This document shows positions 1,514 through 60,013 of a stretch of 64,000 nucleotides of DNA, piece by piece (position 1 is the first letter of the stretch; every line of letters begins with the position of its first letter). A program made the translations under genes and the position numbers. Source of the stretch: Armatimonadota bacterium (GTDB lineage: Bacteria; Vulcanimicrobiota; JACPDS01; JBDRKI01). The DNA is taken from assembly GCA_043814095.1 (NCBI GenBank), contig JBDRKI010000023.1, positions 277 to 64,276 of the forward strand, written 5' to 3'. Under the pieces are notes generated by a model, which saw nothing but the letters and a program-made list of their open reading frames with translations, made no database searches and was not told where the DNA came from.

Positions 1514-2905
1514 ATGAGTTACTCAAATAAAGAAATAATGAACCTGTTCTACGGCGAGATTATCTACGGCGGGACTAAACATAAGGTAGATAAAAATCAG
1601 AATAATAGATTTATCGCCGATAACAGCAGGATTTATACCGCTGTGAAAATGCAGGATAATATCTATAAGATTTATGCCCGTATAGAAAATAGACTTTACT
1701 GCGTAAAAGTAAATGACGCAGATGACAGTATTAAAAAGAAAATCAGTGAAGCTAAGAAAAAAGCATTTAAGAAAACCGTTGTTTCACAAGTCAAACCTAA
1801 ACCCGTAAAAAAAGCGGTAAAGAAGCAGATTCATGACGGATGGGCTGCAAATTTATTTGAAAGCGATATTATACGCGGAAACAGCAAAAATTATACCCGG
1901 AAAGGCGCTAAGTTTCATACCGCTTACGGCAGAGCATATAAAGTCAGTAAAAGGGGTTCGGGATACAGGGTATATATGTATATATGCGCTAACCAGGCGA
2001 TAGGCGATCGCGAATGCAAAAACGGAGAAGTATTTTATTATGATATAACAGATCCCATGGGGGACGTAAAAACTATTTTAGCAGGCAGGAAAACTCAAGA
2101 ATCCTCAAATACTCAAAGCGCCGGATCATCCGCACCTTCGCAGGCCGCACCTTCGCAGACAGAAACAATTACCAACCGGACATCTCCGGCACCGGAGATT
2201 CCGGATGCCACAAAGGGTGTCGCTAATGTAGAACAGCAGACAGTAAAACAGGGAGGCATTACGGTAAACGGTAATTTTAACGACCTTATTATTTATCCCG
2301 AAACCAATGAGGCAGTCGCGAAAGAAACGGTAACCGAAGTAGATCCGGAAACCGGAGAAACTTTTACTGAAGTGCGCGAGGTCCCCGCAGAGCTGGGACC
2401 CGGCGGGTTTTACTATAAAAAAGATGATTATCAGGCAGGAGCAACCCGGGAGGAGACTCCTCTTGCGGTAAGACACCTGGGAGGCGGTGAATATACCGAC
2501 GATTTAAGGTTTACCGGCACACAGGTAAGGATGTTCCGCGAAGAAAGCCCTAATGTGATTAACGAACTTAAAGCCGGATTTGAGATGTCAAAAACACCGG
2601 AAGAAAAGATTTTTTATGAATATAAGGTTTTGCAGAAAGCTTATGCCAGGGGAATATATAAAATATATATGTCGGAAAATACAGTTTTAGAGCTTTATTC
2701 TGAAAACGGCGCCTTAATAGCGGATAAGAATGATGCCTATGACGGGACAACAAAAGAGTCAACGAAATACACCCCGGAGAATACGGGAGATAAATTCTAT
2801 ATTACAAAAGAATTTAAAGATTATGTAATTTATAAGGAAATTAAAGAAAAGATTTATTATTCAGTCAAAGACGGCAGCATAGGGAAAGAATCTTTAAAAA
2901 GTTAA
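1514..2905 (+). CDS. Hypothetical protein (~464 aa) with Lys-rich and Ser/Ala/Pro-rich low-complexity linkers; unknown function
   Basis: ORF 1493-2905. ATG at 1514 is preceded by GAGGAG 5 nt upstream, so it is the preferred start. Begins 27 nt after the upstream gene stop. Confidence 0.5.
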   Translation: MSYSNKEIMNLFYGEIIYGGTKHKVDKNQNNRFIADNSRIYTAVKMQDNIYKIYARIENRLYCVKVNDADDSIKKKISEAKKKAFKKTVVSQVKPKPVKKAVKKQIHDGWAANLFESDIIRGNSKNYTRKGAKFHTAYGRAYKVSKRGSGYRVYMYICANQAIGDRECKNGEVFYYDITDPMGDVKTILAGRKTQESSNTQSAGSSAPSQAAPSQTETITNRTSPAPEIPDATKGVANVEQQTVKQGGITVNGNFNDLIIYPETNEAVAKETVTEVDPETGETFTEVREVPAELGPGGFYYKKDDYQAGATREETPLAVRHLGGGEYTDDLRFTGTQVRMFREESPNVINELKAGFEMSKTPEEKIFYEYKVLQKAYARGIYKIYMSENTVLELYSENGALIADKNDAYDGTTKESTKYTPENTGDKFYITKEFKDYVIYKEIKEKIYYSVKDGSIGKESLKS

Positions 2906-2929
2906 CATTTTGTTAACATTTTGTTAACA
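2902..2929 (+). promoter_or_regulatory. Three TTAACA hexamers at 11-bp spacing (2902, 2913, 2924) followed by an extended -10 (TGTTATAAT, 2947-2955)
   Basis: GTTAACAttttGTTAACAttttGTTAACA overlaps the stop codon of the upstream gene; a TGnTATAAT -10 lies 20 bp downstream. Confidence 0.45.
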
Positions 2930-2999
2930 ACTTTGAAAAGAAGGTATGTTATAATATAATAAAGAAAAAGAATATGTTTTTTAAAGACAGGAGATATAT

Positions 3000-3194
3000 A
3001 TGACAATGCATCTGAATTCAGGAGTTGAGAAAGTCGATAAAAATCTGCTTAAAAAATCATGGGCGGGGATTTTAAGAGAAGACAGTACAGGCAAGCTGGG
3101 CGAGAATATTCTCCGTTCAGGTTCTGAATCAGACCCGCAGATGGTATTAAGCAAGGCGGCTGAGCTGTTTTTTAATAAGACAGAACAGGCATAA
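3000..3194 (+). CDS. Small hypothetical protein (64 aa) driven by the TTAACA-array promoter
   Basis: AGGAG RBS 6 nt upstream of ATG; intrinsic terminator directly downstream (3223-3259). Confidence 0.45.
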   Translation: MTMHLNSGVEKVDKNLLKKSWAGILREDSTGKLGENILRSGSESDPQMVLSKAAELFFNKTEQA

Positions 3195-3222
3195 ATTATA
3201 CCTTATAATAAGGATATAATAT

Positions 3223-3259
3223 AAGCAGCCTTAAGAACAGGCTGCTTCTTTATTTTCTT
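3223..3259 (+). terminator. Rho-independent terminator
   Basis: AAGCAGCC-loop-GGCTGCTT stem followed by a T-rich run. Confidence 0.6.
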
Positions 3260-3313
3260 GACATCCTAACTTTTTGTGTTATAATCTTTATATTATTGTA
3301 CCTTGAATAATAT

Positions 3314-3594
<281 letters not shown>

Positions 3595-3597
3595 AGC

Positions 3598-3626
3598 ATA
3601 AAAATCCCGTTTTACGGGATTTTTTT
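3598..3626. terminator. Bidirectional intrinsic terminator between the tRNA and the macro-domain gene
   Basis: AAAAATCCCGTtttACGGGATTTTTTT. Confidence 0.6.
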
Positions 3627-4139
3627 AGTTAAGATACTTTCGAATTCTCTCTGGTATGCTTTATAATCATTTTCACCGAAAAGCACCAGATAAACATCTT
3701 TTATAATATCACTATTGTAATTTTCAAGCGTTTTTTTAACTATTCCGGCCGATATTTCTATAGGTACCATATATACACCGGTGCTTATCGCAGGGAAGGC
3801 GATAGATTTACAGTTATTTTTTTCCGCTTCTTTAATGCAGTTCTTATAGCAGTCCGCCAGAAGTCCTATATCATCTCTATTATATACAGGCCCGACGGTA
3901 TGTATTACGTGTTTTGCTTTTAAGTTATATCCCTTTGTTGTGACAGCCTGGCCTGTGGGAAGACCGTTAGGGTAGGTTGTTTTTCTTATAGTGCGGCATT
4001 CTTCAAGCAGTTCATTTCCTGCGGCTCTATGTATGGCTCCGTCAACTCCGCCTCCGCCAAGAAGTGATGAATTCGCGGCATTTACTATAGCATCTACTTC
4101 TAACCCTGTTATATCACCCCGTATAATCTTTATATTCAT
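3612..4139 (-). CDS. Macro domain protein (O-acetyl-ADP-ribose deacetylase, YmdB-like)
   Basis: IRGDITxxxVDAIVNAAN...GGGVDGAIHRAAG...HTVGP motifs. Confidence 0.85.
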   Translation of the reverse strand: MNIKIIRGDITGLEVDAIVNAANSSLLGGGGVDGAIHRAAGNELLEECRTIRKTTYPNGLPTGQAVTTKGYNLKAKHVIHTVGPVYNRDDIGLLADCYKNCIKEAEKNNCKSIAFPAISTGVYMVPIEISAGIVKKTLENYNSDIIKDVYLVLFGENDYKAYQREFESILTKKIP

Positions 4140-4293
4140 ACCATACCTCCATTGCCGTATTATATTAATATATAATTTATTTAAGTAAAAATAATTAAAA
4201 ATCCTTGTTTTTGCAAAAAAAGGAACTTTTTAATAAAGATATAATTTAATGAGTCTATGCGAAAACATACAATTATTCGGAGGTTTTAAGGCT

Positions 4294-5937
4294 ATGAACT
4301 TCAAAGAAAAGATAAAGCATATGCTTGATGCCCATACCGGCATTAAGGCTAACATACCGAGAAAGTCCATAATTCAGGAGGCTGTTGATAATAAAGAAGC
4401 TATGGTAAGCGCCAACGGCGCTCTTGCCGTATGGACCCCGCCTGAATCAACAGGCAGGAGTCCCCAGGATACAATGATTGTAAGGCGTCCCGAGAGCGAA
4501 GCAAATATTGACTGGACCTCCCCTAATAACACACCAATGGATCCCGAGACTTTCCAGATGATATTTGATGATGCGGTAAAGACGCTTGGATCAAAAGAAA
4601 AACTTTATTATACCGACAGGGTGCTCGGAGCTGATTCTACCTATGCCCTGCCTGTCAGGACAATTTCCAATCGGGCGCTCCCCATGCTTTTTACCGATAA
4701 TATGTTCAGGCCGGTTCCCGAAGATATTAATAAAAGTACTCTTTTGAAATACAGTTTTACTATTCTTGTTCTGCCTTATGATAAACTGGATAGAAAAAAA
4801 TATGAAGGAAGGTTAAGAAAACTTCCCAGCGGCAATACAAGCAATATGGTTATAGTCATGGATATTGATAACTGCATAGGCATAGTTTACGGCTCCGCTT
4901 ACTGCGGGAGTGTTAAAAAACTTATGTTTTCAGTCATGAACTATATACTGCCGCAGGAAGGCATACTTCCTCTGCATTGTTCCGCTAATGAAGACAAAAA
5001 CGGATCCATGGCTCTGTTTCTTGGTCTTTCAGGGACAGGAAAAACCACTCTTTCGGCAGATCCCGGCAGGGCTCTTCTCGGTGATGATGAGCATATGTGG
5101 AGCGAGAAGGGTATTGCTAATTTTGAGAACGGATGCTACGCAAAACTTATAAACTTAAATCCGGAGAAAGAGCCTGAAATCCATAAAGCGTGTTTCCATA
5201 AAGCGGATTATCTTGATCACGGCGCTATAATAGAAAATGCCATGATTTATCCCGATGGAAAGTTTGATCTTGATGACGAGAGGTTTACTCCTAACTCGCG
5301 CGGGTCTTACCCGCTTTGTTTCCTTACGAATATTAATGAGTCTTCAGTCGGCGATCATCCAAAATATATAATTTTCCTGACAGCTGATGCTAACGGAGTT
5401 CTTCCTCCTGTTGCTAAGCTTACCACAGATCAGGCGAAACTGTGGTTTTTAATGGGCTATACCAGTAAGCTGGCAGGGACAGAGACGGGCGTTATAGAGC
5501 CGTCGTCGACTTTCTCAAGATTTTTCGGCTCGCCTTTTATGCCGAGAAACCCCGGCGATTACATCAAACTGCTTGAAGAGAAAATGAATAAATACAAAAC
5601 AAGCGTGTATCTTGTTAATACAGGATGGTCAGGAGGCCCGTACGGAGTAGGCAAGCGCATGGATATTAATTTAACAAGACAGGTTTTAGACGCTATTCTG
5701 GAAGGCAAGCTTGATAATGTAGAATATACCGAAGACAGTCTTTTCCATATCATGGTCCCGAAAAGCTGTGACGGCGTGCCGCCGGAAATATTAAATCCGC
5801 AGAATACCTGGACAGATAAAGGCGCCTATACGGAAAGAGCGGAGAAACTGTCCGATGAATTCAAAAAAAGTTTTGATAAATCCTACGGCAGTAAAAATAT
5901 AGATAAAAAAGTTGCGGCACAATGCCCGGGATGCTAG
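4294..5937 (+). CDS. pckA: Phosphoenolpyruvate carboxykinase (ATP)
   Basis: GLSGTGKTTLS P-loop and overall PEPCK-ATP similarity; GGAGG RBS before the ATG at 4294. Confidence 0.9.
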   Translation: MNFKEKIKHMLDAHTGIKANIPRKSIIQEAVDNKEAMVSANGALAVWTPPESTGRSPQDTMIVRRPESEANIDWTSPNNTPMDPETFQMIFDDAVKTLGSKEKLYYTDRVLGADSTYALPVRTISNRALPMLFTDNMFRPVPEDINKSTLLKYSFTILVLPYDKLDRKKYEGRLRKLPSGNTSNMVIVMDIDNCIGIVYGSAYCGSVKKLMFSVMNYILPQEGILPLHCSANEDKNGSMALFLGLSGTGKTTLSADPGRALLGDDEHMWSEKGIANFENGCYAKLINLNPEKEPEIHKACFHKADYLDHGAIIENAMIYPDGKFDLDDERFTPNSRGSYPLCFLTNINESSVGDHPKYIIFLTADANGVLPPVAKLTTDQAKLWFLMGYTSKLAGTETGVIEPSSTFSRFFGSPFMPRNPGDYIKLLEEKMNKYKTSVYLVNTGWSGGPYGVGKRMDINLTRQVLDAILEGKLDNVEYTEDSLFHIMVPKSCDGVPPEILNPQNTWTDKGAYTERAEKLSDEFKKSFDKSYGSKNIDKKVAAQCPGC

Positions 5938-36552: not shown

Positions 36553-37596
36553 ATGAGAAAAGTGTTCTTAAGGGTTGTTTTAGTATTTATTTTTTCCGTT
36601 GCATTAATATTGTCTTCCGGCGCTTATGATATAGACTCAAGAGGTGATATAGCGGTAGGTTCCGGAGACAATAATTCAAAGATAGAGATAGCGGGCGGCA
36701 GGTTTGTTATTGTTGCCTTAAAATATACTTCGGGCACGGGTTATACCTGGAAAGCGGTAAAAGCTGATCCTTATTATGTCCAGCAGGTCGGAAAAGAAAC
36801 AACAGAAATCCCGGAATCGGCTATACCCGGTGCTCCCGGTTATCAGAAATTTAAGTTTAAAATGAAAAAAAAGGGTGAGACAACACTTCAGTTTCAGTAC
36901 CTGCGGCCATGGGAGGAAGATCAAAAAGGTTCCGAGACATTCACAGTGAATCTTGTGATAACATCAGATGATTTTAACGTAAAATACCGCACATTGAATA
37001 AGAGAATATTCCAGCAGAGCGAAGAATGCTCAATATCCGTGTATTACCCTCAGATAGACGGATTTTCTGATAAGGATTCCCAGGATAAATTAAACGGGAT
37101 TATAAGCGGGTATATTAACGGGCTCCTCGGCCAGTTTAAGAAAGATATGAAAGACAGGAACAGAGAAGTTTTATGGACCCTGTATGTTGATTATGAAGTT
37201 AAATTTGAATCCAATAAGCTTATAAGCATGATATTTACAGGTGACTGCTATGAAGGCGGAGCTCATCCGGACCAGATTACTTATACTTTAAATTATGACC
37301 TCCAGAACGAAAAGATCCTTTCTTTAGGGGACTTTTTTGAAGAGGGCACCTCTTACCTGGATCCTATATCTTCTTACTGCATAAAATATCTAAATGAAAA
37401 ACAGGTTTCTAATCCGGACTGGATAAATAAAGGAGCAACTCCGGTAGAAGAAAATTACAAGTCTTTTTATGTAGTTGAAGATAATTTAGTTATAGTTTTT
37501 CCACACTACCAGGTTGCCCCTTATTATGAAGGCATACAGGAAGTCCCGGTACCTTTTAAAGATTTAAACGGTGTTAAAAATGAATTAATGAAGTAG
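36553..37596 (+). CDS. Secreted protein with chagasin/I42-like N-terminal region and DUF4163/DUF3298 (RsiV-like) C-terminal domains
   Basis: TSGTGYTW motif (I42-like); YYPQIDGFSDKDSQDKLN...GGAHP block typical of DUF3298. Confidence 0.5.
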   Translation: MRKVFLRVVLVFIFSVALILSSGAYDIDSRGDIAVGSGDNNSKIEIAGGRFVIVALKYTSGTGYTWKAVKADPYYVQQVGKETTEIPESAIPGAPGYQKFKFKMKKKGETTLQFQYLRPWEEDQKGSETFTVNLVITSDDFNVKYRTLNKRIFQQSEECSISVYYPQIDGFSDKDSQDKLNGIISGYINGLLGQFKKDMKDRNREVLWTLYVDYEVKFESNKLISMIFTGDCYEGGAHPDQITYTLNYDLQNEKILSLGDFFEEGTSYLDPISSYCIKYLNEKQVSNPDWINKGATPVEENYKSFYVVEDNLVIVFPHYQVAPYYEGIQEVPVPFKDLNGVKNELMK

Positions 37597-37625
37597 AAAA
37601 GATATATAAAAAGCAATGATAAAAA

Positions 37626-37900
37626 GGCCGGCATGGGCGCTTGCTTGCCGGTGAAAGTCCGATACGGAGGTTGATAGCGCCAACAGTTAGCCAAAGACAA
37701 GGGTGTCCGTTGTGAGGCGGAATTTCAAGGAAGTCGGAGGCAAAGCTTCGGTCTGAGGAACACGAACCGCATAAAAGGCATAGCTCTGCGGGCGAGTTTG
37801 CACAACAAAACGAAGCCCCAAACTATCCGAAGCAGGCAGTGTAAATGCGGCAGATATATGAAGCGAAAGTAAGGGCTAACAAAGGAAGTCACGGTATAGA
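37626..37900 (+). mobile_element. GC-rich structured RNA segment resembling group II intron domain I (internal fragment)
   Basis: GTGAAAGTCCGATACGGAGG and AAAGACAAGGGTGTCCGTTGTGAGG parallel the Ll.LtrB domain I blocks GAAAGCUGAUACGGGAAC and AAAGACAAUCGGGUACGACUGAG in the same order. No GUGYG 5' end was found. Confidence 0.4.
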
Positions 37901-38109
37901 CGGGCGGTATTTGAATCCTTTCATCTTCATAATTGTTATTTTCTATATATATCAAGGAATTCCTCTGTTTGCCGGCTTTTCTAAACAGGGTAATACAACT
38001 TTTGCTGTATTTTGCTCAGAAACATAAAATCAAAGTTCTAAATTGGCTTGACACTTAGCAATTCTAATATTGACATTTATTCCATAATAGAGTAATCTAT
38101 TATGGAGAT

Positions 38110-39387
38110 ATGATTAAAGAAAGAAAAATATTCGCCAAATTGCTGAAAGAAGCTTCCGTGCCGAAAGTGTCTATAATTTTGGGCTCGAGGCAGGTGGGAA
38201 AAACCACCGCTTTGGAATACGTGTTTGAAACCATCTGCGGGAAAGGAAAGCATAAGGGCATATTTTTAGATTTAGATATTTATTCTAACTTTGAAAAAAT
38301 TTCTTCCTACGAAAATGCCGTTAATACTTTTAAATTGGCGGGGTATAACCCTGAAAGCAGGGAAAGGTTCTATGTTTTTCTTGATGAGTTTCAGAGGTAT
38401 AAAGATTTAACGGTCATAATAAAAAATATATATGATCATCATAAAAACATAAAAATATATGCTACCGGTTCTTCTTCCATAACGATAAAATGCAATGTTC
38501 AGGAGAGTTTGTCGGGAAGAAAAATAATTACATATTTATTTCCCTTGAATTTTGAGGAATTCCTTATTTTTAAAAATAAAAAAGACTTACTGGCGGCGCT
38601 TAAAAATGTTTCATCGCTTAGAGGGGAAGACCTTTTCGCCCCCTCCAAAGAACTTTTTGAAAATTTGGAAGAATTTATAAGGTTTGGGGCATACCCCGAA
38701 GTGGTATTGGCGGGGAATAAAAAAGACAAGACGGAAATTTTGAGGAGCATTTTTGATTTATATGTAAAAAAAGAGCTGGTGGAATATTTAAAAATAGAAA
38801 AAATATACGAAACCAAACGGCTGATTCAATATCTCGCGGTAAATAATGCGCAAAAAATCAAATATCAGAATATTTCACAGTTTGTGGGTTTTTCCCAAAA
38901 AACGGTTAAGCATTATATAGAAATCATAAAAGAAACCTTTTTGCTTGTCGAAATAAAGCCGTTTTTCGCGAATAAAAACAAAGAATTGGTAAAAATACCA
39001 AAAATATATTTTGTAGACACGGGTGTTGCGAATTTCTTTACCAATAATTTTAATAAATTGGAATTAAGAAACGATTCGCCGTTTTTATTTGAAAACTTTG
39101 TTTTATCCGAATTTCTAAAAAACGGTTTCATCGAGGACAATATTAAATTTTGGCAGGATAAAAATAAAAACGAAGTGGATTTTATATTGGAAAAGAGCTC
39201 AAAGGTCACGGCAGTGGAAGTTAAATTTAAGAAAAATCTTAAGGCCTCGGATTTTTCTTCGCTTAATTTGTTTAAGAAGGACTACCCCGGCACGGACTGT
39301 GTTTTGATTAACCTGTCTTCGCAGAAAAAACACAAAAACATAAAAACGATGCTGCCGTATAAAGCGGCATATGCGGCAGAGATATAG
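38110..39387 (+). CDS. AAA_14 ATPase with C-terminal DUF4143
   Basis: GSRQVGKTT Walker A near the N-terminus; architecture typical of the widespread AAA+DUF4143 'ATPase' family. Confidence 0.75.
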   Translation: MIKERKIFAKLLKEASVPKVSIILGSRQVGKTTALEYVFETICGKGKHKGIFLDLDIYSNFEKISSYENAVNTFKLAGYNPESRERFYVFLDEFQRYKDLTVIIKNIYDHHKNIKIYATGSSSITIKCNVQESLSGRKIITYLFPLNFEEFLIFKNKKDLLAALKNVSSLRGEDLFAPSKELFENLEEFIRFGAYPEVVLAGNKKDKTEILRSIFDLYVKKELVEYLKIEKIYETKRLIQYLAVNNAQKIKYQNISQFVGFSQKTVKHYIEIIKETFLLVEIKPFFANKNKELVKIPKIYFVDTGVANFFTNNFNKLELRNDSPFLFENFVLSEFLKNGFIEDNIKFWQDKNKNEVDFILEKSSKVTAVEVKFKKNLKASDFSSLNLFKKDYPGTDCVLINLSSQKKHKNIKTMLPYKAAYAAEI

Positions 39388-39572
39388 TAAGAAAGGGACG
39401 TTCCTTTCTTTGTTTTTTTATCTCTTGTTTTTCAGTTCATAATACTTTGCCCAGAATCATTTGGCGAAAAAAAACTCTATGTTCTTGCCTCGTTCGGCAA
39501 TAGCGCATCGCAAATTTGTAGTATTGATGTATGTGAAAAAATTGGTTGTATCGAAAAACAGGCTGTCGCTTT

Positions 39573-40090
39573 TTAATCCATATATTTTAAAAACTTTTTT
39601 AATAAATCTCGCTCTATTTTTTCAATTGCCTCTACAGAAACCGCATCCATTAAATTCCAAAAATGCCGGCTATCAATTTTATTCAAACTACACCTGAGCA
39701 AATATTCGCAAGAAGTTGTTTTTACCCAGCTCCACCATCCATTCTTGCTCGTTGGCATGCAGGCTCGTCCCATGTCTGCAAGCAAAAGAGTAATCCCGGC
39801 TGTTAAATTATTTCTAACCGGCTTTTCGGCCGTGTAAGATCTGGATGACTTAATATATTGATTAATCGTTAAGGGAACTTCTAATTTATCAGCCACATTA
39901 AGCAATGCGGCCACGGCGCCATAGGTATATGATTTTAAGCGCAATCCATCGGTAAGCCCCCGCATGCGCCTTAATAAATCTTCAGCCTTGCCAAGATAAG
40001 CAAGGACAATAGGCCTTGGCTTGCTCTGGATTCCACTATGTACCAGTATCTGTGTCCTCTTGAATTCTTGGGTTGGATTGTAGCCATATT
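39573..40090 (-). pseudogene. IS1634-family (IS4-superfamily) transposase N-terminal fragment, frameshifted and truncated
   Basis: MATIQPKNSRGHRYWYIVESRASQG...GKAEDLLRRMRG matches the IS1634 Tnp N-terminal pattern. Frame switch near 39975; ORF ends after ~170 aa. Confidence 0.55.
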
Positions 40091-40260
40091 CAGCACTTCC
40101 TCAGTGTATACGTAAATTTTGAAAACAAAAAAACCGCAACCTTGGTTGTTGTAATAAATTGCGGCTCAAACTTTTATCGGAAAATTAATTTCGTAATAAA
40201 CTCACGCTAGGTTTCCTCTCAATCCTAGAAAGATACTCACTAACTCTTAATTCTTGTTGA

Positions 40261-40326
40261 ACCGCCGTATGCCGAACGGCTTGTACGGTGGTGTGAGAGG
40301 ACGGGGGCTAACCGCCTCCTCCTACT
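40261..40326 (+). mobile_element. Group II intron domain V (40261-40292) plus putative domain VI; 3' end remnant
   Basis: ACCGCCGTATGCCGAACGGCTTGTACGGTGGT fits the DV consensus (CCGUAU...GNRA-like...ACGUACGG) with a two-stem architecture; the downstream hairpin GAGGAcgggggcuaaccgccUCCUC follows. Confidence 0.5.
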
Positions 40327-40338
40327 CGATTTATTTAT

Positions 40339-41253
40339 TTACGCCAGAGGCAGACGGAATGTAAATTTAGTCCCTTGCTCTATACCGCTTTCCAGTTTTA
40401 TCTCTGAAGCGTGGCCTTCTAGATAAGTTTTCACTATATATAATCCGAGTCCCGTGCCTTCGCTTCTTTGTCCTTTTATCCGGGTAAATTTTTTAAATAC
40501 ATCCTGCTGTTTTTCCTGGGGGATCCCGCATCCTGTATCCGAGACTTCAAAAGCTGCTTTATCCTTATGCCTGCGGCACGAGATTTTTATTGTCCCTCCC
40601 ATAGGGGTATATCTTAATGCATTATTTACAAGATTGTAGAAAATATGGCGCAGTTTATCATAGTCGGCATGAACGGTTGTGTCTTTGCCTCCGGAAAAAG
40701 TAAGATTAACCTGTTTGAAATCGGCATAAGGCTTAAAAATATAATTTAATTCCTGGAATAAGTTTTCCACTTCAAAATTTTCAAAGTGGTAATCTGATTT
40801 ACCCGAATCTATTTTAGCCGCGCCGGTTACATTGTTTACCATATAAAGGAGCGCGTTTTCGGAAAATCTCATGCCTTCTATACATGAGAGTTTTTCGTTG
40901 CCTTCCAGCCGGGGCAGGAGATCTGTAGTGGCTATTATGGTGCTTAATGGGGTTTTAAGGTCGTGTATAAGCATTGACAGGAACTCTTCCCGGGCTTTCT
41001 GGAGTTCTTTGTCCGCTTCTTTTCTTTCTTTGATCTGTTTTTTAAAGGGAAGTATCATAAAAAAATAAAGAGCGGGGAAAAGAGTTATAACAAGGAGGCC
41101 TGAGTCAATTCCCAGCTCTATCCATACAGGATAGGGCAGGTAGCGTATAAAAAGCATTATAAGGATATCGCATATAATTATCGCAAGTATTATAATGCCG
41201 AGCAGAAGCCAGAGTTTAGGTTCCGTATATTTTTTTTCTGTTGTATCTATCAT
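40339..41253 (-). CDS. Sensor histidine kinase (2 TM, HisKA and HATPase_c); no cognate response regulator adjacent
   Basis: H-box LIHDLKTPL; N, G1, G2 boxes (NLVNNALRYT, DTGCGIP, GLGLYI). Confidence 0.8.
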   Translation of the reverse strand: MIDTTEKKYTEPKLWLLLGIIILAIIICDILIMLFIRYLPYPVWIELGIDSGLLVITLFPALYFFMILPFKKQIKERKEADKELQKAREEFLSMLIHDLKTPLSTIIATTDLLPRLEGNEKLSCIEGMRFSENALLYMVNNVTGAAKIDSGKSDYHFENFEVENLFQELNYIFKPYADFKQVNLTFSGGKDTTVHADYDKLRHIFYNLVNNALRYTPMGGTIKISCRRHKDKAAFEVSDTGCGIPQEKQQDVFKKFTRIKGQRSEGTGLGLYIVKTYLEGHASEIKLESGIEQGTKFTFRLPLA

Positions 41254-54894: not shown

Positions 54895-55146
54895 ATATCA
54901 AAAATATACTGCTAAGTCAAAATAATATATATTTTTGTTAAATACGAAAATCAGGAAGCGGCAATATAGGCGCCATTAATGCCGTGAGAGCCTTAGGATT
55001 TGTCCCGGGGGTAACTGTCCTTATGGCAGATATTGTGACATACTCACGGGGTTAAAACTCCATGCATCTTTGGTTTTCAGATGCTAGAGCTTCCTGCTTC
55101 AACGATACTTGACTCGTAGACCATTACCCCTCAAGGGGGTAAAATG

Positions 55147-55185
55147 TTAACAAATTGTTAACATATTTGTAACATTTTTGTAACA
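55147..55185 (+). promoter_or_regulatory. Four TTAACA/GTAACA hexamers at exact 11-bp spacing (55147, 55158, 55169, 55180) followed by a TATAAT -10
   Basis: Same architecture as the arrays at 48-86 and 2902-2929. Confidence 0.45.
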
Positions 55186-55284
55186 TTTTTATATTTACTT
55201 ATAGTCATATATCCCCTATAATGATTATAGATATGAAATAGGCGTTTTTTTCCTATTTGTATTGATTTCTTTACAGAGGTTATT

Positions 55285-55833
55285 ATGCGCGGACCTGATT
55301 TAACAAACTTAAGATCAACATTAAACAGAATAAACCAGATCCAGAGCATGTTTGACGCGGAAAAAAGCACCCAGTCAAATGATGTTTCATTTGACGCTAT
55401 GCTCCAGGGCGCATTAAACAAAAGCACGGGTGGAAGCTTCGCGGCGAACCAGCTGCTTAATAATCTGTCATATATAAACCACTTAAATAACCAGACCCTT
55501 GTAGACTTATCGGATCCCAAGAAAATGATTAAATACAAAAATTATGAGATGCAGGCAAAAACAGCAGCAAGATTCCAGAAGCTTGAATACCTTGTATCAA
55601 AACATTTCCCAGGAAAAGAAGTTATAATAACTTCAACAACTGACGGTATGCATCTTGATCAGAATCACTACACCGGCGAAGCTGTTGACTTTGTGGTTGA
55701 CGGCATAACAAGAGAAGAATCAAGACAGCTTGAGGAATTATGCAGACAAGCCGGTTTTAAGCCGTACAACGAATACCTGTACGGTTCAAGATACAAGCCG
55801 GGCGATCATATGCATATAGATTATGTAGATTAA
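55285..55833 (+). CDS. FlgJ-like rod-binding N-terminal region fused to a LAS/peptidase-M15-type zinc peptidase motif (putative cell-wall hydrolase)
   Basis: SFDAMLQ motif (Rod_binding-like); H-x5-H-x2-G-x-A-x-D (HLDQNHYTGEAVD) and HxH (HMH) zinc-ligand pattern of M15/VanY-type peptidases. Confidence 0.5.
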   Translation: MRGPDLTNLRSTLNRINQIQSMFDAEKSTQSNDVSFDAMLQGALNKSTGGSFAANQLLNNLSYINHLNNQTLVDLSDPKKMIKYKNYEMQAKTAARFQKLEYLVSKHFPGKEVIITSTTDGMHLDQNHYTGEAVDFVVDGITREESRQLEELCRQAGFKPYNEYLYGSRYKPGDHMHIDYVD

Positions 55834-55860
55834 GAAAAACAAATATATTTAAAAATTAAA

Positions 55861-55896
55861 AAAAGACTGTTCGTTTTGAACAGTCTTTTTTTTTTA
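55861..55896 (+). terminator. Strong intrinsic terminator (9-bp stem, 9-T run)
   Basis: AGACTGTTCgttttGAACAGTCT followed by TTTTTTTTT. Confidence 0.8.
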
Positions 55897-55898
55897 CA

Positions 55899-56268
55899 GT
55901 GCGCCCGGCAGGGCGCAATTACCTGAAGGTGAGAGTCCTTTTCAGGCCAGATGCGGGGAACTGCTAGTTAAACGTCAAGGGTGTCCACAGACAAAGCGCT
56001 GGCCTGACGAACAGAAATCACAAAATAGGCGTACATGCTGGATGAGAAGGCTGTTATCTTTAAAGTCCGATACCCATACGAAAAGCATGTGCGTAGATGT
56101 GGCGGGCATAAGCGTGAAGGTGATTGCGCATTACCTGGGGAGGTCCATGAATTTGCCGTAGTGCTATTGCCGTCGAGAGACGGCGAGATGAGTTCAGAGA
56201 AGTCAGCAGAGGTCATAGTAGGTTGTTCGACCGCAACCGAAGGACTAAATTCATCACGGCTTACCTCC
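55899..56268 (+). mobile_element. Group II intron 5' fragment (class-C-like): GTGCG start immediately after a terminator; ~370 nt GC-rich, no ORF, no domain V
   Basis: GTGCGCCCGGCAGGGCGCAA resembles the Ll.LtrB 5' end GUGCGCCCAGAUAGGGUG. It shares 11-12-nt blocks with 37626-37900. Bacterial class C introns target sites just 3' of intrinsic terminators. Confidence 0.5.
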
Positions 56269-56343
56269 TTTCTTTTTGTTTTATTTAATGGCTTTTTATG
56301 CCTTTAAATCTTGATTGAGGGAAGTCTCTTTCTCCCTTCCCAC

Positions 56344-56356
56344 CTATATTATACCC
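56344..56356. repeat. Homopolymeric C13 tract
   Basis: Read directly; lies in an AT-rich intergenic region. Confidence 0.9.
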
Positions 56357-56481
56357 CCCCCCCCCCGCGTATACGGATATAGGTCAAAGGGAGTATTTTT
56401 GCGCATAAAAAGATAATTTTTGAGTGATTTTGCTAAATGACTTTACAAGCGGATGAAACGACAAAAAACAGCTATTTTACA

Positions 56482-58779
56482 TTACGCCAGAGTAACCCTG
56501 TTTTTGCCTTCATGCTTTGACTTATATGTTGAAAGATCAGCTTTGAAAATAAGGTCTACTTTTGAAGAGGCATCATCCGGATATGTTGAGACACCTATGC
56601 TGCCGGTAATCTGTACCGGGTATTTATTAACATGCTGGAAAAAGCCTTCCCTTATCCTTTCGGCGATCATAGCGGCTTCTTCCTTGCTCTGACCCACAAG
56701 CACAAGCGAAAATTCATCCCCGCCGTAACGGCAGACAAAATCGCTCTCCCTTGTATAGGTTCTTAACATGACGGCTATCTCAGAAAGAACCTTATCCCCT
56801 GCGGGGTGGCCCAGCGTATCATTAAACTGTTTAAAGTGATCTAAATCAATAAATATTAAAGATACCGGCTTATTATATCTCTGTGACCATTTAAGCGATT
56901 CCTCAAGGCGCTCCTGGAAATACCTGTGGGTATAAAGGCCGGTAATGCCGTCGGTAATCGCTAATGCGGCGATCTTTTCATAAAATTCCGCGTTCTGTAT
57001 GGCCATTGCCGCCTGATATGCAACCGATACAACCAAACCCAGCTGGTCGCCGTTAAATGAATACGGAAGCGTGGCCCCGAAATAAACCGCCCCTATAATC
57101 TGATTCTCAACAATTAAAGGAGCCGCTATTATAGACTGCTCTTCTTCGGTCAGATTTTCAAGAATAGATTCTTTCGCGTCTTCAAGCAGCAGTACTTTTC
57201 TGTTTGTATAAATCCAGCCGAGCAGACCTTTTTTGGGATCTAATTTTGTATCTTTAAAATAATCTTCATGCGGAGATATTATATGTTCGGGGACAAACTT
57301 TGCTTGATCTGCTTCGCCTTCAAGCTTAAATATAACGCAGGTCTGGTAATTAAGCATGCTTTTTGTCGCGTCACCTATAATCTTTAAGGTTTCCTTAAGA
57401 TGTAATGTCGTGCCCAGCGTTTTACCGAAATCCGATATCATTGATATTTCCTTAACTTTGATATCCAGCTGTTCATTTATTCTCTGCTGGACTTTAAGGG
57501 CTTCTTCCTGGGCTTCAAATAAAAGCGCTGATTTAATAGCGATAGCCGAAGCTGTCGCAAGATTTGAAACGGATTCCAAATGCTCTGTTGTAAAACTGTT
57601 GGGATTTTTAGCTCCTATGTAAATCACGCCTATAAGCTTGTTCTGGATTATAAGGGGGATGCCCATTATGGATGCTTCGTCTTTAAATATCCTATGTTCT
57701 GAAGAGGTATCCATGTTGCCAACCAGAACCGGTTTGTTTTTATCCGCTACAACTTCCACGACTTTCTCTTCAAGCTTCAAAAGATTGGAAGCCTCAAGCA
57801 CCTCTTTATAGGGAGTGGAATATTTATATGGGATGAGCTCCTTTTCTTTATTATACAAATATATAACACAGCTCTGGCAGAATATGAGCCTTCTTATCAT
57901 ATATATAACATTATTAAGAACGCTTTCCAAGGTGAGGTTGGCGCCCAGAACGTGGCCCAGTTCAAAGAAAATAGAGAGTTCATCTATTTTCTTCTGCAGG
58001 GTATTATCAAGACTTATATTTGATTCTTTTATCTTATGAAGCTCTGCCTCAAGATAGTTCATTCTTCCCTCAGCCGCTTCCTGACTCTTAACCTCGGCCA
58101 CATGAACCGATATCCCCTGCATATACCTTACCGCCAACAGCACGGGTATAATAAACGCGGTAAAATAGGGTCCCTTCATATAAAGCATTGTTGTGGCTAC
58201 AGCCAGGGGAATAACGGCTATGCTTACAAAACCTGCTTTGTTTTTGGCTAAGTTCCAGATCTTCTGCTTGTCGGGAAAATACATTCCTATAAAAATAGCG
58301 GGAAGAAGATAATCCATCAGCATATACACAACGGCTATCACAATAAGTGAAATTATATTGCCTAAAGACAGAAACGCGGCGCTTGCGTTAGTTATATAAT
58401 AAATCGTGCCGGTAAAAATAATTATTAAAAAAGTGTCGGAAAAATCAGCCAGCCTGAACCACGAATTAGAATAATTAACTATTAATGCCCTGAACACCGA
58501 ATTAATAAGCACGGCAAGGATGGCCATCTGCGGCCCGAATACAATTAGTACCGTAAAATAAATTACAAAAGCCGGATTAATGCTCCCGAAAAAACCTACG
58601 CGGAATGAAGTAATTTCAAAGGCCAGGGCTATGATAAGTAAAAAAATAAACGATCCCAGCCCGCTTGACGGCGGAGATACGGAACCCAGTATTTTATAAA
58701 AAAGCAATACCCCGAGAATAAGGGCGATAAGAAACTTGATTATTATAAATTTTTTCGCGCCGCCGGAAATTTCTTCCAT
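56482..58779 (-). CDS. Multi-TM GAF-GAF-GGDEF diguanylate cyclase
   Basis: RYGGDEF active site and two GAF-like regions; 8-10 N-terminal TM helices. Confidence 0.8.
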   Translation of the reverse strand: MEEISGGAKKFIIIKFLIALILGVLLFYKILGSVSPPSSGLGSFIFLLIIALAFEITSFRVGFFGSINPAFVIYFTVLIVFGPQMAILAVLINSVFRALIVNYSNSWFRLADFSDTFLIIIFTGTIYYITNASAAFLSLGNIISLIVIAVVYMLMDYLLPAIFIGMYFPDKQKIWNLAKNKAGFVSIAVIPLAVATTMLYMKGPYFTAFIIPVLLAVRYMQGISVHVAEVKSQEAAEGRMNYLEAELHKIKESNISLDNTLQKKIDELSIFFELGHVLGANLTLESVLNNVIYMIRRLIFCQSCVIYLYNKEKELIPYKYSTPYKEVLEASNLLKLEEKVVEVVADKNKPVLVGNMDTSSEHRIFKDEASIMGIPLIIQNKLIGVIYIGAKNPNSFTTEHLESVSNLATASAIAIKSALLFEAQEEALKVQQRINEQLDIKVKEISMISDFGKTLGTTLHLKETLKIIGDATKSMLNYQTCVIFKLEGEADQAKFVPEHIISPHEDYFKDTKLDPKKGLLGWIYTNRKVLLLEDAKESILENLTEEEQSIIAAPLIVENQIIGAVYFGATLPYSFNGDQLGLVVSVAYQAAMAIQNAEFYEKIAALAITDGITGLYTHRYFQERLEESLKWSQRYNKPVSLIFIDLDHFKQFNDTLGHPAGDKVLSEIAVMLRTYTRESDFVCRYGGDEFSLVLVGQSKEEAAMIAERIREGFFQHVNKYPVQITGSIGVSTYPDDASSKVDLIFKADLSTYKSKHEGKNRVTLA

Positions 58780-58780
58780 A

Positions 58781-60013
58781 TTACTGCACCGTCCTGAAAA
58801 TGATTCTGATAGGATAATAAGAGGCGCCTTCCGGCAGTGTCTTTATATTCACCGTGCGCGCCTCCCACGGTCCTAGCTTATAAGACCAGATTTTATGCTC
58901 TATGTAAGCCCTTGTGCAGGGAACTTCCAGAAGACGTCCGTCCAGAATAAAGGTCCCGCTGGCAACTCCGCCCCTTGGCTGGAATATTATCTCAACTTTA
59001 CACGGCTTGCCGGTAGTTTCTTTAATATCTAAATCAATGTTATATATTGTCCCGTAATCTCCCGCCAGGTGTTTGCCCGGAAAAAGATTGCGTAGCGGTG
59101 TATCGCCGAAAAGTATATATTCTTCTTTACTGCCCGTATCAAATCTAACGTCATAAGTAAGATCCGATATCATATAAACACCGCGCGCGTGAGTATCAAC
59201 TTCGGAACTTACCGGCGGATACTTGGGTTCTTCATCGCGGGTCCGAGTTGAAAAAAGATAAAACCATACAGGCGGACCGTCCAGAAGATACATCTCAAGT
59301 ATGCCCGAAAAAAGCTCTTTATGGGGCATCTCATAATTAAATAATATAAGTTCTTCGCCAGGTTTAATATTATAAATCACACCGCGCCTGTTATTCTTAC
59401 TCTCAAGAAAACCGATATTATTCGTATGACCGACCTTCATATAATTTTTACTGGGCCCTTTCATATCCCCTGATATGTACAATCTGGCCGTTTTGTCTTT
59501 ATCGGGGTTATAAAACCTGAGGGACATATAAGGATTTTCGTTTTCTAGGTCGGAAAGATGGTAATACTGGAACCTTACTTTTTTCCTGTAAATGCAGGAG
59601 GCGTTAAAAAGCACGCCGTAAGACGCAACCTTCTCCGGGTGGTTGCTGAACATTAAAAACGAGGGCTCTACATCAGGCAGATCATAATTTTTTATTTTCA
59701 GCTTCATCTTTTTAGATGTTTTTTTATTCTCCGCGCCAACAAAAGCAAAAGAATTTATTTTCAATACCTCCGGAATATTTTTAAGCTCAATATCTTCAAC
59801 CGCATCCGCCTGGCCGGTCTGAACCAGGTAATCCTTAACAATGTTTTCTAAAAGACTTGCTTGTGTATTTTCTCCCGCAAGCTCAATAACAATATAATCA
59901 ACAGGGGGCTTCTCATCGGAAAAAGAAGGAACAGCTAAAATAAGCACGGCAATAAAGCAAAACAAAATTGATATTCTTAGCTTTTTATTCCACACCACTG
60001 CCTCTTTATACAA
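58781..60013 (-). CDS. Secreted hypothetical protein (410 aa), translationally coupled to the GGDEF gene
   Basis: Signal peptide; stop is 1 nt before the GGDEF start; TTG start 2 nt after the leuS stop. Confidence 0.5.
   Translation of the reverse strand: MYKEAVVWNKKLRISILFCFIAVLILAVPSFSDEKPPVDYIVIELAGENTQASLLENIVKDYLVQTGQADAVEDIELKNIPEVLKINSFAFVGAENKKTSKKMKLKIKNYDLPDVEPSFLMFSNHPEKVASYGVLFNASCIYRKKVRFQYYHLSDLENENPYMSLRFYNPDKDKTARLYISGDMKGPSKNYMKVGHTNNIGFLESKNNRRGVIYNIKPGEELILFNYEMPHKELFSGILEMYLLDGPPVWFYLFSTRTRDEEPKYPPVSSEVDTHARGVYMISDLTYDVRFDTGSKEEYILFGDTPLRNLFPGKHLAGDYGTIYNIDLDIKETTGKPCKVEIIFQPRGGVASGTFILDGRLLEVPCTRAYIEHKIWSYKLGPWEARTVNIKTLPEGASYYPIRIIFRTVQ

Follow-up and report, generated by a model that had tools for sequence, protein, structure and literature searches.

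A probable group IIC intron remnant broken up by an IS1634-family fragment and an intact ATPase gene in an Armatimonadota contig

The 64,000-nucleotide stretch of contig JBDRKI010000023.1 from an Armatimonadota bacterium (hereafter, the window) holds, at positions 37628-40330, what is most probably the non-functional remnant of one group IIC intron (estimated probability about 85%). An intact gene for an ATPase with AAA_14 and DUF4143 domains and a piece of an IS1634-family insertion sequence (IS) lie in its interior, and the locus represents ordinary mobile-element decay, not an intron carrying cargo. One original intron is assumed because the two RNA pieces lie on the same strand, are collinear, belong to the same family, and have remnants of the intron-encoded protein (IEP), a reverse transcriptase (RT)/maturase, in the right order just inside both of them. 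About 395 nucleotides (nt) of an original intron of ~1.9 kb are left, and the remnant is predicted from its sequence to be unable to splice or move. That bacterial group II introns may end up as fragments has been described (PMC4496777). An initial annotation of the region had offered two readings, a degenerate intron overwritten inside by later insertions and an intron-derived vehicle with a non-RT cargo; the former is upheld by the IEP remnants inside both RNA pieces and by an IS terminus that abuts the C-terminal one. The features of the locus, with the evidence for each, are as follows.

37628-37877, plus strand: domain I (D1) remnant, approximately intron nt 7-250 (RF02001, blastn, alignment)
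37878-37904, plus strand: N-terminal IEP remnant NKGSHGIDG, approximately codons 20-28, fused directly to domain I (tblastn, profile)
37905-38062, no strand: AT-rich filler, GC 0.316, between the IEP remnant and the ATPase module
38063-38109, plus strand: promoter-like and palindrome module, TTGACA-N17-TAATCT (kept in six of six loci compared)
38110-39387, plus strand: intact AAA_14 and DUF4143 ATPase gene, 425 amino acids (Pfam, PADLOC PDC-S01)
39389-39420, plus strand: terminator-like hairpin and T-run after the ATPase gene (terminator scan)
39481-40212, minus strand: IS1634-family remnant, transposase ATG at 40087 (NF033559, tblastn, terminus alignment)
40213-40260, plus strand: C-terminal IEP remnant FLSILERYSLTLNSC, approximately codons 404-418, adjoining domain V (tblastn to the IEP C-terminus of the Halanaerobium polyolivorans relative L001)
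40261-40292, plus strand: domain V (D5) with CGC catalytic triad and GAAC loop (RF00029, fold, alignment to relatives)
40294-40330, plus strand: domain VI (D6) with a bulged, branch-point-like A (40324); the 3′ end of the intron, CTACTCGAT, falls at 40330 (fold, alignment)

The covariance-model search for group II domains that the initial annotation had proposed matched both RNA segments. RF02001 (group-II-D1D4-3) matches 37706-37877 on the plus strand with 145.4 bits (E 3e-30), the full model being covered, and RF00029 (domain V/VI) matches 40260-40330 on the same strand with 41.3 bits (E 5e-6; gathering score 40), a match found only in a scan of the small region, speed filters having dropped it in both whole-window scans. 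The 78 nt at 40255-40332 fold as two hairpins with a minimum free energy of -40.1 kcal/mol (z = -5.1; 0 of 200 shuffles as good): the D5 hairpin, of the 34-nt type, occupies 40261-40292 and carries a 2-nt bulge, and the D6 hairpin occupies 40294-40328 with a bulged A at 40324. Model match and fold thus confirm the domain V hairpin and the domain VI-like hairpin of the earlier proposal. Homology puts the intron 3′ end at 40330 (CTACTCGAT followed by TT), 8 nt ahead of the stop codon of the adjacent histidine kinase gene (40339-40341), whereas the hairpin had first been described as ending 13 nt before that stop; CTACTC(G/T)AT followed by TT is kept at the 3′ end in five aligned sequences. The features of a group IIC intron present in these pieces are a D5 hairpin with triad and bulge, a D6 bulged A 6-8 nt from the 3′ end, and the domain I core.

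The 22-mer CTTCGGTCTGAGGAACACGAAC from domain I was used as an exact query in one scan of genome_contigs and one scan of metagenome_contigs, and 13 loci (7 genomic and 6 metagenomic) were retrieved with it. Six of the 13 contain complete introns of 1889-1913 nt with an RT/maturase of 418-420 amino acids, namely L001, L003, L004, and L006 (the last three from Oceanobacillus sp.) and the metagenomic L012 and L014. The complete relatives show RF02001, then RF01998 (domains II-III) after a further ~40 nt, and lastly RF00029, over a total of ~1805 nt. The first bases of the relatives are GTGTG, GTGCG, or GTTTG, and a terminator hairpin with a T-run lies a few bases ahead of them; group IIC introns are known to target intrinsic terminators (PMC4424553). 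Since these canonical IIC relatives sit behind terminators and share the CGC triad and the GAAC loop with D5 of the window, the element is assigned, by its sequence, to group IIC (bacterial class C) and not to the Ll.LtrB-like IIA introns. The domain I-like RNA proposed at 37626-37900 is genuine in the light of the 145.4-bit match, but its likeness to Ll.LtrB is generic only. Likewise, the distance of 2.7 kb between the two RNA pieces, previously taken as the size of an open reading frame (ORF)-containing group II intron, exceeds the 1.89-1.91 kb of the intact relatives. L004 itself appears to correspond in sequence to the crystallised O. iheyensis IIC intron.

By blastn, the domain I core is 75-84% identical to the IIC relatives, and D5-D6 is 84-89% identical to L004, L012, and L014, all of which belong to the same 22-mer family as the 5′ piece. 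What remains of the RNA scores much as it does in intact relatives (145 versus 140-148 bits for the 5′ piece, and 41 versus 43-46 bits for D5-D6), which indicates that decay proceeded by rearrangement rather than by long point-mutational erosion, the D5 bulge being a possible exception. This bulge (40279-40280) reads UU, whereas AC is found in L004, L012, and L014, and the D5 stem beside it shows a compensatory change from ACC:GGU to GCC:GGC; together, these changes may reflect early point-mutational decay of the catalytic hairpin. With the Oceanobacillus iheyensis-type IIC introns (L001, L003, L004, L006, L012, and L014) the window copy has in common the domain I core, the CGC triad, the GAAC loop, the D6 bulged A, the 3′ end CTACTCGAT, the IEP sequence NKGSHGIDG near the N-terminus, and ERY near the C-terminus. 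Unlike them, it has lost nt 1-6, the 3′ strand of domain I, D2 and D3, the 5′ portion of D4, and ~375 IEP codons; no terminator hairpin precedes it, 2.3 kb of foreign DNA lies within it, and its D5 bulge has UU instead of AC. Damaged copies also occur among the retrieved loci: the introns of L002 from Sporomusa malonica (1094-1323, after a tRNA cluster and a terminator) and of L010 (~3753-3900) are cut inside domain I, and in L005 from Oceanobacillus kapialis (2320-4303) an IS21-like transposase ORF follows intron D1-D3.

The RT/maturase ORF that domain IV would carry is missing, with ~9-13 N-terminal and ~15 C-terminal codons left and ~375 IEP codons gone. At the 5′ side, domain I homology stops at ~37877 (intron nt ~250), and the adjoining 37878-37904 encode NKGSHGIDG. 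The N-terminal remnant has 10 of 13 identities to the L001 IEP by tblastn, and its ORF is the best of 3283 six-frame pieces of the window against a profile of four IEP sequences (positions 17-32, E 0.39). Of its 27 nt, 21 equal those of L001, whose counterpart reads RVVKNKGSHGIDG, and all six differences are synonymous and fall on third codon positions, a pattern that marks coding homology. As this remnant is fused straight to domain I, and as ~370 nt lie between the two joined points in L001 (domain I 3′ strand, D2, D3, 5′ D4, and the first IEP codons), the arrangement implies an internal deletion of ~370 nt that would have removed the domain I 3′ strand, domains II-III, the 5′ portion of domain IV, and the first IEP codons, from 1 up to ~15-19. 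In keeping with such a loss, RF01998 (domains II-III, J2/3) remained unmatched in the region scan at any E up to 10; all fetched relatives that reach that far contain it, as does a second intron fragment of the window. The deletion would have taken place between two similar stretches of 12 nt, one in D1 (AACCAGGGAAGG) and the other in the IEP gene (AACAAAGGTAGC). Two other interpretations of this junction were considered and dropped: a MAFFT alignment that pairs 37876-37895 with the 3′ strand of domain I, as if D1 were retained, is more likely to reflect microhomology at the deletion site, and the view of 37880-37908 as a domain III relic (AAGUCA...AUAG) conflicts with the finding that NKGSHGIDG differs from L001 at synonymous sites only.

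At the 3′ side, the C-terminal remnant ends with a TGA stop codon (40258-40260) that overlaps the start of D5. It covers profile positions 404-418 with a weak score (E 40), and the aligned stretch includes three IS-derived residues. Homology at the DNA level begins at 40228 for L001 and at 40245 for L004, whose IEPs end in GYFSFTERYAQVINS and GLKSLYQRYEFIRNT, respectively, each followed by the stop codon and with the spacing to D5 that is seen here; where the relatives have the motif GL.SL..RY, the window has FLSILERY. An earlier delimitation of this remnant from 40189 was rejected, since 40193-40212 form the IS terminus and the remnant begins at 40213. The intact source intron is predicted to measure ~1.9 kb and to encode an IEP that contains KVRANKGSHGIDG and ends in FLSILERYSLTLNSC.

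It is distinctly unlikely that the 5′ and 3′ pieces stem from two different IIC copies, inserted separately or recombined, which never formed one intron at this site. Such an origin would fit the local abundance of intron fragments, exemplified by the second, independent IIC 5′ fragment at 55900-56245, the occurrence of 5′-only fragments among several fetched relatives (e.g., L002 and L010), and the fact that the 5′ piece is nearest to L001 (84%) while D5-D6 is nearest to L012 and L014 (88-89%). However, the pieces share strand and collinearity, with the N- and C-terminal IEP remnants correctly ordered inside them, and D5-D6 is closest to the 22-mer family of the 5′ piece, with which the second window fragment shares just a 23-nt match. 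Moreover, L001 is the nearest relative of both the C-terminal IEP remnant and domain I, and the D5 of L001 is an outlier among all relatives.

The intron's 5′ end is missing. DNA homology with the relatives begins at 37628 (CCGGCATGGG), which corresponds to intron nt 7, and identity from this point amounts to 81% for L002 and 80% for L010, and to 84% for L001 over 37651-37872 (blastn). A GUGYG 5′ end, for which a search upstream of 37626 had been suggested, was not found: 37622-37627 read AAAAGG where relatives have GTG(C/T)GC or GTTTGC, so that the 5′ GUGYG (GUUUG in L001) is absent at the aligned positions, where the window reads AAAAG. GT(G/T)(C/T)G stands at the aligned position in L001, L002, L004, L010, and the second fragment of the window. 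A terminator scan found no hairpin with T-run between the stop of the upstream gene, which encodes an I42/PdaC-domain protein (stop at 37596), and 37627; insertion next to a terminator is seen for the 55900 fragment, L001, L002, L004, and L010 but not for the copy at 37628. The sequence AAAAAGGCCGG ahead of 37628 resembles the left arm of the terminator that precedes the L001 intron (AAAAAGGCCGGGATTCCCGGCCTTTTTTT), and a deletion between two CCGG motifs could have taken the right arm of the terminator, the T-run, and the first six intron bases. The original target might have been a bidirectional terminator, AAAAAGGCCGG...CCGGCCTTTTT, in the spacer that separates the I42/PdaC and kinase genes. 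The two flanking genes are convergent (I42/PdaC-domain gene on the plus strand, histidine kinase gene on the minus strand), and no downstream terminator-like hairpin was called for them in 37597-37627 or 40331-40338. Because a terminator is missing after the upstream gene, transcription from this gene may continue across the domain I remnant in the direction of the ATPase gene. A search for orthologues of the I42/PdaC gene returned a single 46%-identical protein, located on a 1.6-kb contig.

The IS remnant marks an insertion into the maturase gene. Its terminus, ACCTAGCGTGAGTTTATTAC, occupies 40212-40193 on the minus strand and abuts the C-terminal IEP remnant at 40212/40213; the IS was therefore inserted at approximately codon 404 of the maturase gene. 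The initial annotation had described a frameshifted, minus-strand IS1634 transposase fragment, and this description is borne out by a match to NF033559 (E 7e-13; 48 bits against a cut-off of 100) that covers only profile positions 5-157 of 483. By tblastn, the transposase pieces are collinear and comprise residues 1-25, 23-171, and 160-206, each in another frame, which amounts to two frameshifts; over residues 1-206, in three reading frames, they are 68-80% identical to metagenomic relatives. Annotated IS1634 transposases are also matched by tblastn, and relatives reach identities of up to 72%. IS homology ends at 39481, i.e., at transposase residue 206. The terminal sequence ACCTAGCGTGAGTTTAT(T/C)A and the AT-rich leader after it are common to the window and to L015, L016, and L017, three unrelated contigs that encode relatives of the transposase, and similarity is lost upstream of the terminus. 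Within these three loci, ACCTAGCGTGAGTTTAT(T/C)A lies at ~3880 (L015), ~2120 (L016), and ~290 (L017), and the sequences appear to represent an undescribed IS1634-family subgroup; nearly all database relatives of the transposase are cut at contig ends, as expected for a multicopy IS. A second IS terminus was not found in the 64 kb with up to three mismatches, so the element cannot be delimited by two terminal inverted repeats. The remnant is thus a fragment of an IS1634-family member and not an intact member: it agrees with the family in the N-terminal 206 residues of the transposase and in the terminal sequence, but it has a single end, two frameshifts, and a truncation that leaves out most of the DDE domain. 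The notion of a foreign segment flanked by two IS ends was rejected, as neither an inverted repeat nor a second terminus was found.

The ATPase gene at 38110-39387 on the plus strand had been recognised in the initial annotation, and its Pfam domains are confirmed. PF13173 (AAA_14; 92.7 bits, E 2e-26) and PF13635 (DUF4143; 123.6 bits, E 8e-36) both exceed their cut-offs, the PADLOC model PDC-S01 (PDLC04789) matches residues 3-403 with E 2e-82, and Walker A (GSRQVGKT) and Walker B (VFLDEF) motifs are visible in the translation. PDC-S01 is a very common, repeatedly transferred, unvalidated single-gene defence candidate that combines an ATPase with a PD-(D/E)XK-superfamily domain, and its candidacy comes from "guilt by embedding" (PMC12988326). 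The window gene matches the PDC-S01 profiles over their full length, contains both Pfam domains, and shows no difference from this type in the gene itself; it is odd only in its location inside an intron/IS wreck. The protein is 100% identical to an NCBI "MAG: Armatimonadota bacterium" entry (MAG, metagenome-assembled genome), the next relative is 86% identical (L008), and the remainder are at ~72% and below, mostly from Omnitrophota and DPANN-type archaea, a patchy cross-phylum distribution that fits the multiple transfers reported for PDC-S01 (PMC12988326). A sequence search of the PDB with the ATPase gave no match. The GC content of the gene is 0.335 versus 0.409 for the window, and in six of six copies it lies 3.5-12 GC points under the rest of the locus. 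The gene is foreign and horizontally acquired, and it is likely the only part of the locus that is active, independently of the intron.

An upstream module of ~47 nt accompanies the gene in all six copies, i.e., in the window (38063-38109), L008 (3515-3561), and L018, L019, L020, and L022 (~4954-5000). It consists of TTGACA-N17-TA(A/C/T)TCT overlapping CCA(T/G)AATAGAGTA.TCTATTATGG, and no similarity extends beyond it. In the window, the 24-nt palindrome CCATAATAGAGTAATCTATTATGG at 38083-38106, which was also recovered in a self-blast, overlaps the -35/-10-like pair and ends 3 nt ahead of the ATG. This layout suggests a nearly leaderless, possibly autoregulated gene unit that would move as a whole. 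DNA homology to L008 is confined to 38063-39368, none of the fetched loci is homologous to the filler at 37905-38062, the segment 37905-39480 resembles neither introns nor the IS, and a blastn search of 37880-40260 against plasmids gave no match. In L008, L018, L019, L020, and L022, the ATPase gene stands alone and co-oriented inside unrelated operons (radical-SAM/glycosyltransferase, T2SSE and T2SSF, pilin, and chemotaxis genes), and no RT or transposase gene was called within ~5 kb of it in any of these five loci. The shared 47-nt module, the AT-richness relative to the surroundings, and the lone position in unrelated operons have given rise to a more far-reaching idea, according to which PDC-S01-type ATPase genes are self-contained, gene-sized mobile modules, one of which would have entered the intron/IS wreck actively, through a mechanism so far unrecognised; this idea is speculative and rather unlikely.

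The second of the readings offered at the outset, a ribozyme shell in which the ATPase replaces the RT and which is mobilised or spliced in trans, is so improbable that it can practically be dismissed. It draws on the intactness of the ATPase gene and its position between D1 and D5/D6 on the same strand, on the scores of the retained RNA pieces, which are as high as those of intact relatives, and on the precedent of group II introns with non-RT ORFs of the LAGLIDADG type (PMC4424553). However, the 5′ splice-site pentamer, the domain I closing strand, and domains II-III are all missing, the D5 bulge has changed from AC to UU, and a decayed IS shares the same interior. RT remnants flank the insert, which implies that an RT gene was originally present there. 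Besides, no called RT or transposase gene lies within ~5 kb of any of the five related ATPase genes, and none of the loci that hold an exact copy of the domain I 22-mer in the two scanned collections includes such an ATPase gene. LAGLIDADG-type introns resemble the locus in having a non-RT ORF between D1 and D5, but they keep a complete ribozyme and a mobilising homing endonuclease (PMC4424553), in contrast to the incomplete ribozyme and the unrelated ATPase with its own promoter seen here. With no 5′ pentamer, with domains II-III and the domain I closing strand deleted, and with ATPase relatives that are not intron-associated, hardly any likelihood remains that the ancestor of the composite moved as an intron with an ATPase cargo.

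For the decayed single intron, we infer the following history, the order of its steps being tentative. The intron would have retrohomed into the spacer between the convergent I42/PdaC (ending at 37596) and histidine kinase (ending at 40339) genes, probably landing just past the terminator of the flanking genes, as is usual for class C. Later, an IS1634-family element entered the 3′ end of the RT/maturase gene, where its terminus now stands at 40212 exactly. The intron lost its first 6 nt along with the upstream terminator, and a deletion of ~370 nt removed the part from the domain I 3′ strand to IEP codon ~19. IEP codons ~29-403 and the distal two thirds of the IS are gone, and their place is taken by 1.58 kb of AT-rich foreign DNA carrying the intact ATPase gene with its own promoter/palindrome and terminator.

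Several observations weigh against this account. Comparison with other intron copies, which had been recommended, did yield related IIC introns in other contigs, with both pieces in the same family, but no full-length copy above 90% identity was found and none of the 13 loci is closer than 84%. Each IEP remnant is weak by itself at the scale of the whole window (E 0.39 and 40), so that position, order, and strand make them count rather than score. The D5 of L001, to which the 5′ piece is most closely related, is divergent (69%), and the common lineage of the two halves is therefore argued from other relatives and from the IEP C-terminus. The fillers at 37905-38062 and 39421-39480 match neither the intron nor the IS. 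In addition, the sequence belongs to a metagenome-assembled genome, and its junctions are given by the assembly alone. The ATPase protein is recorded solely from a 74-kb NCBI MAG contig, and assemblers misjoin at multicopy repeats, to which IS elements and introns belong; some or all junctions could hence be chimeric joins at repeated IS or intron copies. Such artefacts are nevertheless very improbable: misjoins fall within shared repeats, whereas the junctions here lead from repeat to unique sequence, with 40212 as an exact element end, the D1/IEP junction lies inside one element, and the frameshifts in the transposase are typical of decay.

Taken as the remnant of one group IIC intron, the locus adds a new, though ordinary, case to a form of decay that is already known. 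A parallel is provided by the RmInt1 remnants of Sinorhizobium meliloti (PMC4496777, PMC4181065), which share with the window copy fragmentation, IEP loss, IS association, and the persistence of fragments. Whereas the RmInt1 literature stresses the loss of the 3′ terminus, the window copy keeps D5/D6 and loses the middle; intron class and host phylum differ as well. Beyond annotation the finding matters little: it offers a clean, junction-resolved case of bacterial group II intron death that combines an IS in the maturase gene, internal deletions, and gene replacement with RNA pieces that still score as intact. It also serves as a warning that strong matches to D1 and D5/D6 models, lying about an intron length apart, do not imply a working intron, and that a D5 match near the threshold is missed by whole-window scans. 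The PDC-S01-type ATPase seemingly moves as a compact promoter-plus-gene unit and may interest researchers of candidate defence genes.

Two further intron-related features lie elsewhere in the window. The second group IIC 5′ fragment (55900-56245, plus strand; RF02001 92 bits, RF01998 71 bits) is of another lineage and starts canonically (GTGCGCCCGG) after a terminator hairpin and T-run at ~55846-55896; neither an RT gene nor a domain V accompanies it within 55000-59500. A split intron composed of this D1-D3 fragment and the D5/D6 described above was rejected on account of the wrong order, the lack of exons, and the different lineages. At 3314-3594 on the plus strand, an initiator-type tRNA(CAU) gene, not called by ARAGORN, has its anticodon split by a group I intron of ~206 nt (Rfam Intron_gpI, 3327-3533, 67.6 bits). 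Group I introns in tRNA-fMet genes are known from cyanobacteria, but the gene described here belongs to an Armatimonadota MAG. The two halves of the window tRNA read CGCGGGGTGGAGCAGCGGTAGCTCGTCGGGCTC (5′) and ATAACCCGGAGGTCGGAGGTTCGAATCCTCTCCCCGCAACCA (3′).

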